DNA of 64,000 nt from an uncultured bacterium (GTDB lineage Bacteria > Acidobacteriota > HRBIN11 > JAKEFK01). Positions 45,367 through 51,690 of this stretch are shown piece by piece (the stretch's first letter is position 1; every line of letters begins with the position of its first letter). Under the pieces are notes generated by a model, which made no database searches, was not told where the DNA came from, and worked only from the letters and a program-made list of their open reading frames with translations. The stretch is from the NCBI GenBank assembly GCA_963777505.1, contig CAVZQN010000008.1, positions 384,001 through 448,000 of the forward strand, given 5' to 3'. The position numbers and the translations under genes are program-made.

Positions 45367-45639
45367 ATTCGTACCTCTATTTTTTTATGTGTTCTGGGAC
45401 GGTGGTTCTGACATTATCTCGGCGATGGAAAGGCAGCTCCTAGATGATGTCACTTAATAATGACGGAGCAGCAGACGAGTGCACGGAAAAATTTCGGGAT
45501 TTCTCCGACTCCGTAATGCCGTAGAGATCTCCACTATTCCGTGTGCCCTTTTCTATAACGTTCGCAGTACTTAACTCGTAATCAGCATAACTCACTGCCA
45601 TAAAACAACTTAGCTGTTTAGCTAAATACGATTGAATGT

Positions 45640-45655
45640 TGGCACTCTGCTTGCT
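45640..45655 (+). promoter_or_regulatory. Sigma54 (-24/-12) promoter of the aspA-ansB-porin operon
   Basis: TGGCAC-TCTGC-TTGCT, an exact consensus match with GG-N10-GC, ~107 bp upstream of the aspA ATG. Confidence 0.75.
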
Positions 45656-45761
45656 GTTGTAAGTCTTCGATGATCCTGATGAGTCCCAAAATCGCTCCGC
45701 GCACGTCGGAGTGATGGGATGCAATACTGCTTCATATGGGATTAAACGAAAGGAGGCTTTA

Positions 45762-47239
45762 ATGAAAAAGCTTAGCATTATATTCATACTAATAGTGTCG
45801 ATGACACTCAGCGTTTCTGCTCAGAGTCAAACCCGAACGGAAAAAGATCTACTTGGGGAAAAACAGATTCCGGCAGAAGCCTATTACGGCGTGCAAACAG
45901 CGCGCGCTCTGGAGAATTTCCAGATCTCAGGAATACCGATCAATCATTATCCTGGATTCGTGGAAGCCTGGGCGATCGTAAAGCTTGCTGCTGCGCGTGC
46001 CAACCATGATGTCGGCGCGCTGAAAAAAGAGAAGCTGGATGCAATCGAAAAAGCCTGCAATGCACTCATGAAGGATAAGAAGTATCACGATCAATTTCAG
46101 GTCGACTTCTATCAAGGTGGAGCAGGTACATCCACAAATATGAACGCAAACGAAGTTCTCGCAAATGTTGCTCTAGAACTCAGCGGCCATAAAAAAGGCG
46201 AATACCACCATGTCGAACCACATGATGATCTGAACATGTCGCAGTCGACCAACGATTCTTACCCTACTGCTTTGAAGGTCGCTTTTATTCTACGCAACGA
46301 CAAATTGATCGGAGAGCTGGAAAAAACTGCAGCATCTTTCCGGGCAAAGGGTAACGCGTTTTTAAAGATTGTAAAGATGGGCCGGACAGAGATGCAAGAC
46401 GCTGTGCCCATGACAGTCGGACAGGAATTCCACGCTTTTGCTGCCTCGCTTGAAAGCGAAATCCAACTGTTGCGCGATGCAGAGAAGTACCTCTACGCAG
46501 TCAACATGGGAGGAACAGCGATCGGCACAGGCTTGAATGCTCCTAAAGGATATGCCGAAAAATGCGCCGCTCATCTTGCAAAGATAACTGGAAAGCCGAT
46601 TGTTCCTGCAAAAGATATGCTGGCAGCAACGTGGGATCAGCAAGGCTTTGTCGTTTATTCTGCTGCTCTTAAAAGCGTTGCGATAAAGCTTTCCAAAATT
46701 GCAGGCGATTTAATTCTTCTTGCAGCAGGACCCCGCGCAGGTCTTTTCGAAATCAATCTTCCAGCAATGCAACCTGGCTCTTCAATCATGCCGGGCAAGG
46801 TAAACCCCGTAATTCCTGAGCTTGTCAATTTAGTTGCATTCCGAGTGATGGGAAACGACTACACAGTGAATCTTGCTGCGCATTCTGGCCAACTTCAGTT
46901 GAATGCTTACGAACCCATCGAAGGTCTTGCGATTATGGAATCGCAGCATTTGCTCTTTACAACATCTTCGACTTTCCGAACAAAGTGCATCGATGGAATT
47001 ACTGTGAATGAAGATGTGTTGCAAGACTATCTCGAAAAAACAATTGGCATTGTCACAGCTTTAAATCCTGTGATCGGATATGAGAAAGCGACAGAATTAG
47101 CGAAAGAAGCTTTCGACACAAAAAAGGCATTTTGCAACTCATTCGTGAAAAGAAAGTTTTAACAGAAGATCAAATCCGAGACTTGCTGGATCCAGTCAAA
47201 TTGACCGGTCTTGATCCCGCTCAGTATCAGCAGAAGTAA
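45762..47239 (+). CDS. aspA: Aspartate ammonia-lyase with an N-terminal Sec signal peptide (one A missing in the homopolymer at ~47120)
   Basis: AGGAGG RBS; YYGVQTARA, GGAGTSTNMNANEV, MSQSTND, GSSIMPGKVNP; adding one A restores KGILQLIREKKVLTEDQIRDLLDP...* ending at 47239. Confidence 0.88.
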
Positions 47240-47250
47240 GGGAGACACTT

Positions 47251-48315
47251 ATGAAACTCATCAAATCACTTGTAACTTTTTGTGTTGTTCTATTATTTGC
47301 AGCCAGCCTGCAAGCTCAAGGTGCGAAGAAACCTCGCGTTGTAATCGTTGCTACGGGCGGAACGATCGCAGGATCAGCCGCGACTGCGACTGAAGCCGGC
47401 TATCAATCAGGAGCAGTTGGTGTCGATATTCTGATTGCAGCCGTTCCCCAACTGAAAGAAATCGCAGATGTGAAGGGAGAACAGGTTGCCAGCATTGGCA
47501 GTCAGGACATGAATGATGAAGTGTGGATCAAGCTAGCCAACAAAGTTAATGAATTGCTTGCCCAGCCTGACGTTGCCGGCGTAGCGATCACACATGGTAC
47601 GGACACACTGGAAGAGACTTCGTATTTTTTGAGCCTTGTTGTGAAAAGCGATAAGCCAGTTGTGATGACCGGATCGATGCGGCCTTCAACAGCCATGAGC
47701 GCAGATGGTCCGTTGAATATTTACAATGCAGTGGCAATCGCAGCAGATCCAACAGCGCGCGGACGTGGTGTCCTGGTAGCAATCGATGACGATATCCACT
47801 CCGCTCATGACGTGATCAAAACTCACACAACCGATGTTGCAACATTCACTTCCAATGAAGCGGGACTCGTTGGAGCAGAACTCTTTGGAAAGACGATCTG
47901 GTATCGCGCACCGCGTCAGGTCCATACCAGTAAGAGTGACCTTGCGCTTGTTGCAGGCAAAGGACTCCCGCGCGTAGATATCATTTATGCTCACGCAAGT
48001 ATGTCTCCGGACATGATTGATGCCGCAGTTCAAAACGGAGCAAAAGGAATCGTGATTGCCGGTGTAGGAGATGGAAATATGACAGCGCCTGCTATCGAAG
48101 CCGTCAAACGCGCAGTGAAAAAAGGCGTCGTCGTAGTCCGTTCTTCCCGTACAAACGGAGGGATCATCCGCCGAAACATCGAAGTAAATGATGATGAACT
48201 TGGCACGGTTGCATCCATGGAGTTGAATCCTGCAAAGTCCAGACCGTTGCTCCAGCTTGCTTTGTTGAAAACGTCCGACGTTAAGAAAATTCAGGATTAC
48301 TTCGACCGCTACTAA
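47251..48315 (+). CDS. ansB: Type II (periplasmic) L-asparaginase
   Basis: Signal peptide, ATGGTIAG, IGSQDM, HGTDTLEET, SADGPLN, GVGDGN. Confidence 0.92.
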   Translation: MKLIKSLVTFCVVLLFAASLQAQGAKKPRVVIVATGGTIAGSAATATEAGYQSGAVGVDILIAAVPQLKEIADVKGEQVASIGSQDMNDEVWIKLANKVNELLAQPDVAGVAITHGTDTLEETSYFLSLVVKSDKPVVMTGSMRPSTAMSADGPLNIYNAVAIAADPTARGRGVLVAIDDDIHSAHDVIKTHTTDVATFTSNEAGLVGAELFGKTIWYRAPRQVHTSKSDLALVAGKGLPRVDIIYAHASMSPDMIDAAVQNGAKGIVIAGVGDGNMTAPAIEAVKRAVKKGVVVVRSSRTNGGIIRRNIEVNDDELGTVASMELNPAKSRPLLQLALLKTSDVKKIQDYFDRY

Positions 48316-48324
48316 TTTATTAGC

Positions 48325-48393
48325 TCAACGCAGAGGACGTGGAGAGCGCAGAGTTTCATAAATTGATTCAAATTGCTGCGCTCTCCGCGTTGA
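48325..48393. repeat. REP-like inverted repeat pair
   Basis: tcaacgcagaggacgtggagagcgcagag ... ctgcgctctccgcgttga. Confidence 0.6.
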
Positions 48394-48411
48394 ATCAATC
48401 AAGGAATTTTT

Positions 48412-49737
48412 ATGCTCAAAGAATGTCCGAAAAGAACTATTGCTGTGATCCCTTGCGTCTGGTTGGCAATTCTATTCCTGTGGCTTTCGCCACCCCAGTT
48501 GTGCGCCCAGACAGATACTGCTCCCCACATCATAGAAGAAGAATCAGATACTGTTCCTGATGGCACAGAAGGAGAAGTGCTCGTAAAAAAAGGTGCGCCT
48601 AAAAAGCCATGGAATGAATTTGATCTCGGCTTTACTACGTTCAAATTTGGTGCAGGTTTTCTGTATGAATACGGATGGTTCTAACAGGATGAAGAGGGTG
48701 AACAGCAGGCAGAAGAGGGTGGATATAGACTGGATCCTACGGACAAAATTCGTGATTTTCGCATACTTTTCAGCGGACAGATTCCAACCGACAGAACAAT
48801 GACCTGGAAAACGGGGATCATGTATGACGCTCCATCCGGTCAATGGTTTGTGCGCGAGACCGGCGTAATGATCGGCGTTCCTGAATTGTGGGGACATTTA
48901 TTTATCGGCCGCACAAAAGAAGGAGTGTCCTTGAACAAAGTAATTAACGGATACGCCGGCTGGACGATGGAAAGACAAATGGCACTGGATGTGTTCCCCA
49001 TTCTTGCTGATGGAGTCAAATGGATGGGGTATCTACCCAAGAAGCGGTTTTTGTGGAATGCAGGAGCCTATGGCGATGCTCTATCAAAAGGACAGTCCTT
49101 CTCCACCTTTAAATGGCAATTAGCGACCCGCCTTGTCTGGCTCCCTATCTACGCAAAGGAAGAAGAAACGCTTTTGCATCTTGGCACAAGCATTCGTTAT
49201 GGCAAGCCAGTGGATGGCAAGATCAGGCTACGCTCTCGTCCTGAGGCTAACACTGCTCCTTACTTCATCGATACCGGAACTTTTGCTAGCGACCAGTCGA
49301 CCAGCTTGGGGTTTGAGGCATATTACACCAAGGAATCGCTAATGATCGGCTCGGAATTCTATTTGCATAATTTTAGTTCAGACGAGAAAGATGATCCGCT
49401 GTTCCATGGCGGAGACGTAGTTGTCAGCTACATTCTTACTGGTGAATCACGCCCTTATTCAACCGTTAGCGGAATATATGGCTTTGTTCCAGTAGCCAAA
49501 CCTGTTTGGAAGGGAGGACCAGGAGCCATTGAAGCGCTGGTTCGAGTTTCTAACTTAGATCTCGATGGTGGCACGATCAATGGTGGAAAATTCTGGAGGA
49601 TCACACCAATGGTCAATTGGTATCTTTCTTCATATGTTCGATGGGAATTTGCATACGGATATGGAACTCTGGACCGATACAATTTAAAAGGGTCAACTCA
49701 CTTTTTCCAAAGCAGAATTCAATTGAGCGTGTTGTGA
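48412..49737 (+). CDS. OprO/OprP-family porin, interrupted by an in-frame TAA at 48682
   Basis: The two ORFs are in the same frame; signal peptide, GRTKE...MER, RLRSRPE, YILTGESRPY, GAIEALVRVS, VNWY, C-terminal QSRIQL. Confidence 0.8.
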
Positions 49738-50151
49738 TGCATCCCAAATTGGAGATTAGAAATTGCGAATGAGCTCAATTCGGCATTCGGAAATCGATTG
49801 TTCGTTAATCGGACTTCAAGCGCTAAAGCAAACTTGGCTGCGCCTTTGAAACATTGGTTTCTATTCGTTTCGATTTTGATGATTCCATTCTGGGTGAATG
49901 CTCAAAGTCAAACTGAGAGTACTCCGGAACCTCCGGATGATACTAATCCCACGAAAGCTGATCACATAATTCTGAATCGTAACAGCATTCTGAAGCCCAA
50001 AGGCATTATTCTACGATGGGATGTTCCGTTGGCTACGACTCATTTTCAAGAGCGGACGGAAACCGGGCTTGGAGATATTTATTTTCAGCGTTTGCTATTT
50101 CTGCATTTAAGAAAAAGCTTCGTTGTTGGTGCAGAGAAAAGGAAAATCTAT

Positions 50152-51690
50152 ATGAGTGAGAATGGAAAATTAGTGCGAAAGAAAAAAAATAAGAATACAA
50201 AACAAAAGTCTTCTGAGAAAACGAATGGCCGACGCGGAATTCCGGGATTGGATGAGCAGCAGCGGCAAGTAATCGCTAAGATGGAGTCATCTAGCGAGTA
50301 CTTTCTCGGCTCGTTTTCGAGTTACAACCCGCTTCAAAGTCATGAATCATTGGAGAGCCGGTACTCAGCCGGAAAGGCGCTGCGCAACGAAGTTCCACGG
50401 GAAAGTCATGCTGAGTGGAATCCTCCGAAGAACCGGCCCTCTGGCGCTGATTTTGTAATCGCCGGTAACGCCGGCCGCCAGCAAAATTTCGTGCCCTTAC
50501 GTATGGGACGCATGGCTGCTTCACCTTTTGCTTTCTTGCGTGGCGCAGCATCTGTCATGGCGTGGGATTTCTCTCACACTCCTATAACAGGAATTCAAGT
50601 CATCATGGATGGAGATGCTCATATTAACAATTTCGGACTTTATGGAACACCGCAGCGCGATGTGGTCATTGACTTGAACGATTTCGATGAGGCGCTACCC
50701 GGTCCGTGGGAATGGGACCTCAAGCGGCTTGTAGCGAGTGTGAATGTCGCCGGACGCGAAAATGGCTTCAGTAAACGTGAACGCCGGGGAGCAGTCATGG
50801 AAAGTGTGGCTGGATATCGAGCTAATATGGAGCGCCTTCATAATATGGGAATCATGGATTTGTGGGCTCTTTACGCTTATGCAGATCGTAGGCCTACTAT
50901 GATTAAAGTTCCGAAGAAATCATGGGCCCTCATTCAGAAAACGGTTGAGAAAGCGAGAGCTACAACAAATGAAACCTTGCTGCCCAAAGTAGCTCACCGG
51001 CAGACCGATGGCGGATGGCGCTTTATGGAAGATCCGCCGATTCTCACGCGCGTGGACGATGAAACGAGAGGTAAAGTCATTGAATCGTTCAGGGAATATT
51101 TGGAAACCCTTCCACAAGGATACCGGCAGATGTTCAGACGGTATTCTGTCGCCGATGTGGCCCACCGAGTTGTCGGCGTTGGAAGCGTTGGAACGCGTGC
51201 CTATCTCGTGCTTTTGTTTGGAAACAGTAATAACGATCCGTTGTTCCTTCAGGTAAAGGAGGGTATTGTGCCGGCCCATGCGCCTTATTTGCCAGCCATC
51301 AAGTCGAAACTTCCCCCGCATCAGGGACTACGTGTTGTGGGAACCCAACGCATGTTGCAGGCGACAGGCGATCCCATGCTGGGCTACACCACCATTGATG
51401 GGCGGGAATATTTCGTCCGGCAAATGAAAAACATGAAGGCGTCAATGCCATTGGAATGGCTGACAGGCGAGCCCTTCTATTTCTGGGTTTTTCTCTGCGG
51501 AGCTTTGCTGGCAAGAGCCCATTCGCGAATGGGAGATGCGGCTAAAATAGCTGGTTATTGCGGCAAATCCCAGGTCCTGGACGAAGCACTTGCTGATTTT
51601 GCGGAAGCGTATGGTGATCAGACAGAAAAGGATCATGCTTCGTTGAAGAATGCGATCCAACAAGGTCGTATCAAGGCTGTGAACGGTTGA
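50152..51690 (+). CDS. DUF2252 family protein (kinase-like)
   Basis: GKALR..VPRESH, LRMGRMAASPFAFLRG, GDAHINNFG, DLNDFDE..PGPWEWDLKRL, RVVGVGSVG, LARAH; likely start 50152. Confidence 0.85.
   Translation: MSENGKLVRKKKNKNTKQKSSEKTNGRRGIPGLDEQQRQVIAKMESSSEYFLGSFSSYNPLQSHESLESRYSAGKALRNEVPRESHAEWNPPKNRPSGADFVIAGNAGRQQNFVPLRMGRMAASPFAFLRGAASVMAWDFSHTPITGIQVIMDGDAHINNFGLYGTPQRDVVIDLNDFDEALPGPWEWDLKRLVASVNVAGRENGFSKRERRGAVMESVAGYRANMERLHNMGIMDLWALYAYADRRPTMIKVPKKSWALIQKTVEKARATTNETLLPKVAHRQTDGGWRFMEDPPILTRVDDETRGKVIESFREYLETLPQGYRQMFRRYSVADVAHRVVGVGSVGTRAYLVLLFGNSNNDPLFLQVKEGIVPAHAPYLPAIKSKLPPHQGLRVVGTQRMLQATGDPMLGYTTIDGREYFVRQMKNMKASMPLEWLTGEPFYFWVFLCGALLARAHSRMGDAAKIAGYCGKSQVLDEALADFAEAYGDQTEKDHASLKNAIQQGRIKAVNG

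Follow-up and report, generated by a model that had tools for sequence, protein, structure and literature searches.

A 64,000-nucleotide (nt) stretch of DNA from an uncultured Acidobacteriota bacterium (contig CAVZQN010000008.1, positions 384,001 to 448,000; hereafter the window) encoded an aspartate ammonia-lyase (aspartase, AspA), a type II L-asparaginase (AnsB) and an outer-membrane porin in consecutive genes. Judging from sequence comparison, there is a probability of about two in three that these genes form a sigma-54-driven aspA-ansB-porin operon, whose aspartase is one of a large clade of exported enzymes. Textbooks place aspartase in the cytoplasm, and the exported pathway predicted here was well supported by comparison with relatives. 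The features claimed in a first-pass annotation of this DNA (sigma-54 motif, AspA leader, asparaginase, porin, GRTEMQDA motif and lesions) were all present, with small corrections of coordinates (Table 1).

Probable export leader and glutamate variant of the aspartase clade

The AspA precursor opened with MKKLSIIFILIVSMTLSVSA, directly followed by QSQTRTEKD. A scan of species-representative contigs (one genome per species) gave 452 pattern matches, 432 of them encoding relatives, and the best 80 of these 432 loci, all of them from metagenome-assembled genomes, were examined. Leaders were called by a heuristic of our own (15 or more residues open in frame upstream, with a Kyte-Doolittle mean over 9 residues that reaches 2.0 or more). 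This test was passed by 78 of the 80 related loci, a positive outcome for the signal-bearing AspA clade that the first-pass annotation had proposed to look for; the two failures (L041 and L103) resembled start or frame problems. Among 69 aspartase/fumarase representatives used as controls, a single one was flagged, and it carried a long N-terminal domain rather than a leader. The best 120 database homologues of AspA (79-97% identity, mostly 490-496 amino acids (aa), 482-526 aa overall) displayed a hydrophobic N-terminal extension (10-residue window of at least 2.0) in 118 cases, while P0046 had no extension and P0093 stood just below the threshold.

Across 79 loci, the 22 residues that lead up to the mature start had a mean pairwise identity of 17%, and the 100 residues from there on one of 85%. 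A leader so divergent and yet kept in front of a conserved mature part follows the pattern of a working Sec signal. A small-x-small site preceded the mature start in 78 of the 79 leaders (a lenient pattern, applied without a control), and no twin arginine was found in the leader region across the 79 loci. Solved cytoplasmic aspartases aligned from their own residues 4-11, where the conserved R-x-E-K-D-L-L-G begins. The AspA leader is probably a Sec export signal. Some versions with Gemmatimonadota or Vicinamibacterales labels had a Cys behind the hydrophobic core and then a long linker rich in Pro and Ala, an arrangement suggestive of lipid anchoring in those proteins.

AspA matched the Pfam domains Lyase_1 (297.8 bits) and FumaraseC_C (38.4 bits), both over the cut-off. 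Against NCBIfam PRK12273 (cut-off 510), the window protein scored 636.9 bits and P0004, an intact homologue 97% identical to it, 663.6 bits; for both proteins the fumC_II score (441-448 bits) was below the PRK12273 score. The match to the solved structure PDB 6wng had an E value of 1.2e-148. The SS-loop was intact (GSSIMPGKVNP), GSSxMPxKxN being the catalytic SS-loop signature of the class II fumarase/aspartase superfamily, and the read-through length of 493 aa compared with 490-493 aa in homologues. AnsB carried the leader MKLIKSLVTFCVVLLFAASLQA before QG and matched Asparaginase (201.5 bits) and Asparaginase_C (117.1 bits) in Pfam as well as TIGR00520 for type II asparaginases (430.7 bits, cut-off 314.3), although it remained below the E. 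coli-type equivalog PRK11096 (412.2 bits vs 506). The porin matched Porin_O_P (PF07396) over positions 82-367 of 370 (71.7 bits, cut-off 20.9), and no NCBIfam model matched it. The genome also encoded a leaderless aspartase-type paralogue with GRTHLQDA (657.7 bits against PRK12273) and a class I fumarase, so that the exported enzyme appears to be an additional, dedicated copy.

The GRTEMQDA motif placed a Glu (precursor residue 210) at the position of the usual His or Gln. A Glu at this position was common to all 80 related loci, as GRTE[ML]QDA, whereas among the 150 top-ranking representatives of the wider family 63 had His, 52 Gln, 13 Glu, 5 Cys and 1 Met, and no motif was found in the other 16. 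Counted over the 134 proteins with the motif, Glu made up 13. Since the leaderless proteins P0160, P0173, P0249 and P0262 had it too, Glu is not exclusive to the exported clade: the substitution noted in the first-pass annotation stood, but not as a unique mark of exported proteins.

In a neighbour-joining tree of mature parts, built without support values from the window protein, 15 differently labelled versions, 115 representatives and the leaderless paralogue from the same genome, the window protein and the 15 versions formed one tight group on a long stem, apart from the representatives and the paralogue. The 80 loci were labelled as Acidobacteriota lineages in 67 cases and as other phyla in 10 (three Gemmatimonadota, two Calditrichaceae and one each of Zixibacteriota, Krumholzibacteriia, Acidimicrobiia, Lysobacterales and Bacteroidetes), with 3 unlabelled. 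Identities of 78-85% across these differently labelled lineages point to horizontal spread or misbinning. A match was present in 39 of 41 relatives' genomes, a tally that includes the unpublished G035.

Promoter, gene neighbourhood and rearrangement of the cluster

The exact sigma-54 motif occurred once in the 64-kilobase (kb) window, where 0.08 matches were expected and at least one arose in 8 of 100 shuffles. It had the GG-N10-GC core, fitted the TGGCAC-N5-TTGCW consensus and stood 5' of a gene, and rpoN was present in the genome. The GG and GC elements were invariant in the homologous regions of contig C4 of the same genome and of G001, a genome of the same genus, and the earlier promoter claim gained from this conservation in two homologous loci. 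G002, of the same family, had an exact motif just upstream of dcuA-aspA-ansB. Across the window's genome, 16 exact motifs were found against about 6.5 expected from the window's shuffle rate, and all 16 had the start of an open reading frame (ORF) of at least 80 aa within 150 nt downstream. Fifteen of the 16 ended in TTGCT, and several preceded genes with signal-peptide-like N-termini. No sigma-70-like site was found upstream of aspA on the + strand.

The conserved block at 45509-45543 is a candidate site for an enhancer-binding protein, at a distance of some 100-130 nt from the -24 element on its upstream side. No Sigma54_activat domain was found in the scanned ORFs of the window (those of 26-64 kb and eight of 1-26 kb), the genome not having been searched. 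The core CCGTAATnCCGTAG also occurred in G002, about 220 nt from another exact sigma-54 motif (the pair at L023 1910-1925 on the - strand and 2144 on the + strand), ahead of an unrelated exported protein of 630 aa; the recurrence of the core near a sigma-54 motif suggests a shared activator site. Inverted repeats in the upstream region were weak (75-83% complementarity) and were set aside.

Gene context was counted at 53 loci, those with flanking sequence of 3 kb or more to either side of aspA. The ansB gene was present in 41 of them and adjoined aspA in 34, in keeping with the co-occurrence that the first-pass annotation had proposed to check. Conservation of the aspA-ansB-porin trio, part of the same proposed check, was limited. 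The O/P porin gene was found in only 13 loci vs 29 for dcuA: aspA-ansB-porin is a minority arrangement (13/53), and aspA-ansB-dcuA is commoner (29/53). Glutaminase genes were present in 20 of the 53 loci, and the glutaminases of the window's genome and of G001 carried leaders; ansB, dcuA, O/P porin and glutaminase genes were all absent from 4. At other loci, aspA lay among genes for DcaP porins, amidohydrolases, DUF3300/DUF2950 proteins, MFS carriers and fermentation enzymes. At two loci labelled only Acidobacteriota (L048 5288-7951 and L056 5429-7951), a DUF3300-DUF2950 pair directly preceded the exported aspA, with an MFS carrier gene directly 3' of it in L056 and a serine dehydratase gene 3' of it in L048; acetate-kinase genes followed further 3' in both, as did a pyruvate formate-lyase gene in L056.

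The first-pass annotation had stressed the lack of a carrier, and no Dcu or amino-acid carrier gene was found beside the operon in the window. This is a local feature that comes from a rearrangement in this genome, as dcuA lay directly upstream of aspA in G001 and G002 and was present on contig C4 in the window's genome (88% identical). In G001, the run after dcuA-aspA comprised ansB, the O/P porin gene, a DASS carrier gene and the malic enzyme gene, while exported glutaminases and porins were encoded ahead of it. On C4, dcuA was followed at once by an aspA 5' stub of about 145 nt with stop codons and a decayed leader. A deletion scar in the same contig (L030 10274-10540) joined this stub to a 3' remnant of the malic enzyme gene, and an intact malic enzyme gene lay 2.2 kb beyond the scar.

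The stub of an ABM-domain gene behind the promoter in the window aligned with the first 30 or so codons of the ABM-domain ORF heading the C4 cluster (L030 1288-1614). The cluster heads of the window, C4 and G001 shared the block at 45509-45543, the -24/-12 elements (TGGCACTCTGCTTGC, TGGCACCTCGTTTGC, TGGCATTTGATTTGC) and about 30 ABM codons. This upstream homology was visible only in a directed alignment, since a DNA search of the own genome returned itself only and blastn against the loci gave matches of 35-40 nt. The shared promoter and ABM head indicate that the window locus is a copy of the cluster with an internal deletion, which removed everything from the ABM stub to the end of dcuA and accounts for the missing carrier. 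The deletion joined the promoter and the ABM stub to the ribosome-binding site (RBS) of aspA. Contigs of relatives also departed from the window just upstream of 45762.

In this genus, the cluster contained up to twelve same-strand genes behind one conserved sigma-54 promoter (L030 1060-10260; L032 225-15043). The full order was ABM, amidohydrolase, DcaP porin, two exported glutaminases, porin, dcuA, aspA, ansB, O/P porin, DASS carrier and malic enzyme. The C4 cluster also encoded a glutaminase-porin fusion (L030 4071-6263) of 730 aa, in which a leader precedes a glutaminase A domain (410.6 bits) and the C-terminal part is an outer-membrane barrel of DcaP type; its G001 counterpart (L032 1837-4035) was 90% identical.

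Within the window, the start of ansB lay 11 nt past the stop of the aspA tail frame. The next gene after the porin gene, on the same strand, encoded a DUF2252 protein (49798-51690, 419.5 bits) with an N-terminal extension of about 225 residues, the first segment of which resembled a leader. A search for a terminator behind the porin gene gave no candidate between the porin and DUF2252 genes. In one relative's contig, 68 unrelated letters took the place of 48323-48445, at the ansB-porin spacer.

Table 1 Features of the aspA-ansB-porin operon, in window coordinates
Feature	Position	Strand	Remarks
Conserved upstream block (CTCCGTAATGCCGTAG...ATTCCGTG)	45509..45543	+	near-invariant in alignment of window, C4 and G001 cluster heads
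Sigma-54 (-24/-12) promoter TGGCACTCTGCTTGCT	45640..45655	+	sole match in window
Decayed 5' stub of ABM-domain gene, then deletion junction	45670..45740	+	ATG 45670, stop 45712-45714
AspA RBS AGGAGG	45751-45756	+	5 nt before leader ATG at 45762
Sec-type AspA leader MKKLSIIFILIVSMTLSVSA	45762..45821	+	Lys-Lys n-region, hydrophobic core, VSA/Q site (predicted cleavage between A and Q)
aspA, exported-clade aspartate ammonia-lyase	45762..47239	+	493 aa if read through; Glu210 codon 46389-46391
A6 run, aspA -1 frameshift site	47120..47125	+	zero-frame reading A AAA AAG
ansB, type II (periplasmic) L-asparaginase with leader	47251..48315	+	TIGR00520 match
Perfect 11-bp inverted repeat GGAGAGCGCAG / CTGCGCTCTCC, 24-nt loop	48341..48386	+	ansB-porin spacer; read from sequence
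O/P-type outer-membrane porin gene with leader	48412..49737	+	Pfam Porin_O_P; in-frame TAA 48682-48684

Frameshift and in-frame stop in the window copy

The zero frame of aspA ran to six A at 47120-47125, and the family-typical C-terminus (KKGILQLIREKKVLTEDQIRDLLDP...) was encoded in the -1 frame up to the TAA at 47237-47239. Seven A, with the extra A behind 47119, were found in one contig each of three runs of relatives (two studies, 90-99% alike), contigs which bear on the A run only. At the TAA column of the porin gene, all 14 aligned homologues had a sense residue, and G001 had GAT there. Reads of this strain were not found among 15 candidate runs (the best share of sampled words was 0.15, where half was required). 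The lesions are either assembly errors or the onset of decay, real decay being a serious possibility that falls somewhat short of even odds.

The strongest alternative to an intact operon, with appreciable though not prevailing chances, is a dying copy. Frameshift and stop would both be genuine, with a shortened AspA and a dead porin, and this strain would be losing the pathway after the rearrangement that split it from dcuA. The two lesions lie at most 1.6 kb apart in one operon, the porin TAA is a substitution and not a change of homopolymer length, and the aspA, ansB and porin genes are already gone from the sister locus on C4, where a stub interrupted by stops remains. Five overlapping pairs of neighbouring ORFs elsewhere in the window revealed no split gene (separate genes, or ORFs without family match); on these few pairs the assembly was not visibly rich in frameshifts. 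On the other hand, a change from A7 to A6 is a classic homopolymer error of long reads, A7 being displayed by the relatives' contigs, and ansB and the rest of aspA were fully open and 84-97% identical to intact homologues. Some full-length AspA could also still arise at A AAA AAG, the slippery heptamer familiar from -1 frameshifting in E. coli dnaX. A -1 slip there (47118-47125) would yield exactly the family-typical AspA C-terminus, and no stimulatory structure for -1 frameshifting was obvious in the sequence. Decay would concern the state of this locus, and is compatible with a clade that is exported and functional elsewhere.

Proposed pathway and comparison with known systems

Gene positions were observed, and all steps of the proposed mechanism are inferred. 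A putative enhancer-binding protein, perhaps bound at 45509-45543, would activate sigma-54 RNA polymerase at 45640-45655. Sec would export pre-AspA and pre-AnsB, with cleavage behind VSA in the former and behind LQA in the latter, and the porin would let the substrate through the outer membrane. In the periplasm, AnsB would convert asparagine to aspartate and NH3, and AspA aspartate to fumarate and NH4+. Only the carbon skeleton would then cross the inner membrane, via DcuA, whose gene, a neighbour of aspA in most relatives, is found on contig C4 of the window's genome. Fumarate could be turned by fumarase and malic enzyme into pyruvate, the malic enzyme gene being part of the same cluster in G001.

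The earlier inference of a periplasmic route from asparagine through aspartate to fumarate and 2 NH3 drew support from the leader (78/80), the Glu (80/80), ansB (41/53) and the promoter (two homologous loci), and needed correction on the trio, on the missing carrier and on the uniqueness of Glu. In its wider form, the proposal has slightly better than an even chance. It envisages a horizontally spread, soil-bacterial clade of periplasmic, in some lineages possibly lipid-anchored, Glu-marked aspartases, with the whole asparagine route outside the cytoplasm, the carbon skeleton alone imported and the roles of DcuA and AspA reversed. The cells would be extracellular ammonifiers of amino acids, and in this genus the enzymes would belong to the cluster of twelve genes behind the sigma-54 promoter, which encodes exported deamidases as well as porins and carboxylate carriers.

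Several observations weigh against an exported aspartase under sigma-54 control. The export claim rests on our own heuristic leader test, and a leaderless aspartase with GRTHLQDA is also present in the genome. Both aspA and the porin gene are interrupted in the window. The aspA equivalog TIGR00839 (cut-off 681.2) was missed by the window protein (589.6, its tail missing) and also by full-length P0004 (614.2). A strict sigma-54 motif stood just upstream of aspA in none of the 80 other loci, where the strict motif had 7 matches on the aspA strand and 2 on the opposite one, none of them within 600 nt upstream of a matched gene. The relaxed motif had 12 vs 3, with seven loci having one 1.4-7.6 kb upstream of aspA (suggestive only). 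As the motif is not next to aspA across the 80 loci, the evidence for sigma-54 control is confined to this family of genomes. Glu210 replaces the equivalent of His188 of AspB, and substrate or pH behaviour may differ. According to PMC10634366, dcuA beside aspA is also typical of the cytoplasmic aspartase in E. coli and Actinobacillus succinogenes, and the adjacency alone is no proof that fumarate is the imported molecule.

The Glu and the missed equivalog cut-off could also mean that the exported AspA has an activity other than, or in addition to, that of an aspartase, on another amino-dicarboxylate, in another pH regime or as a fumarase-like hydratase, which appears unlikely. His188 of AspB touches the product amine and lines the carboxylate pocket (PMC11744663), so that Glu210 could alter pH behaviour or specificity. 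Glu is also rare at this position (13/134), and at some loci aspA stands beside amidohydrolase and DUF3300/DUF2950 genes and not beside ansB. However, AspA scored far higher on aspartase than on fumarase models, its best solved relatives are aspartases, and the aspartate-producing ansB adjoins aspA in 34 of the 53 loci. A carboxylate opposite the ammonium group suits an amine substrate, and Glu also occurs in the four leaderless proteins.

Least probable, and hardly likely at all, is an N-terminal extension that acts as an uncleaved anchor or is ignored, with AspA in the cytoplasm and the textbook AnsB-DcuA-AspA route in operation; to our knowledge, the aspartases studied so far are all cytoplasmic, and the dcuA adjacency is compatible with that route. 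An interaction of DcuA with AspA, as reported for E. coli in bioRxiv 10.1101/2021.03.01.433382, would add to this precedent, but the positive n-region places the N-terminus inside and the enzyme outside, the small-x-small site recurs in nearly all leaders under the lenient pattern described above, and leader variants with a Cys and a linker exist. Furthermore, no conserved internal start was seen (a Met in the leader core was found in the window and P0004, and not in most homologues), and a separate leaderless paralogue is available for cytoplasmic work.

For the favoured reading, an exported aspartase, no description of an exported or periplasmic aspartase was found in the literature searched, including PMC3543383, PMC9386147 and PMC8542988, with subscription journals and supplements outside the scope; this agrees with the first-pass annotation, to which no description of such a system was known. 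The DcuA nitrogen shuttle and aspartate-fed fumarate respiration, by which aspartate use is now explained, presuppose a cytoplasmic aspartase. An exported form would, if true, change the cargo at the inner membrane and the site of ammonium release, and would concern abundant, mostly uncultured soil groups (432 related stretches at one genome per species). The Glu variant may also interest aspartase engineers.

Among known proteins, the cytoplasmic aspartases 6wng, E. coli AspA (1jsw) and Bacillus YM55-1 AspB (1j3u) aligned with the window AspA over the full length (E 1e-127 to 1e-148) and shared its domains and GSSIMPGKVNP. In contrast to them, the window AspA has a 20-residue leader before their start, and its Glu replaces the Gln of 6wng and 1jsw and His188 of AspB. 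The porin resembled OprO/OprP in scoring over the PF07396 family cut-off; unlike these phosphate/polyphosphate porins, it is encoded in an amino-acid catabolic and not a phosphate-starvation operon, and its gene has an in-frame stop.

In Pseudomonas, the AauR/RpoN regulon for acidic amino acids includes the periplasmic glutaminase-asparaginase AnsB (PMC7962211). It resembles the window operon in combining a sigma-54 promoter and an upstream activator site (a candidate one in the window) with genes for periplasmic deamidation of asparagine and glutamine, ammonia being released outside the cytoplasm. It differs in importing aspartate and glutamate via AatJQMP, an exported aspartase not being described there, and the conserved block of the window is dissimilar to the Pseudomonas TTCGG-N4-CCGAA site (PMC7962211).

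The closest known system is the AnsB-DcuA-AspA route of Actinobacillus succinogenes, E. coli and Campylobacter, with its ansB-aspA-dcuA cluster (PMC10634366). The same three gene families recur here, frequently as one operon, with aspA, ansB and dcuA together in 29 of the 53 loci, and both systems have a periplasmic type II asparaginase and fumarate and two ammonia as end products. The window copy differs in having an O/P porin gene and no dcuA. In the known route, DcuA imports aspartate for a cytoplasmic aspartase, whereas here AspA carries a leader and DcuA would import fumarate; with an export leader on the aspartase, the second deamination would also occur outside.

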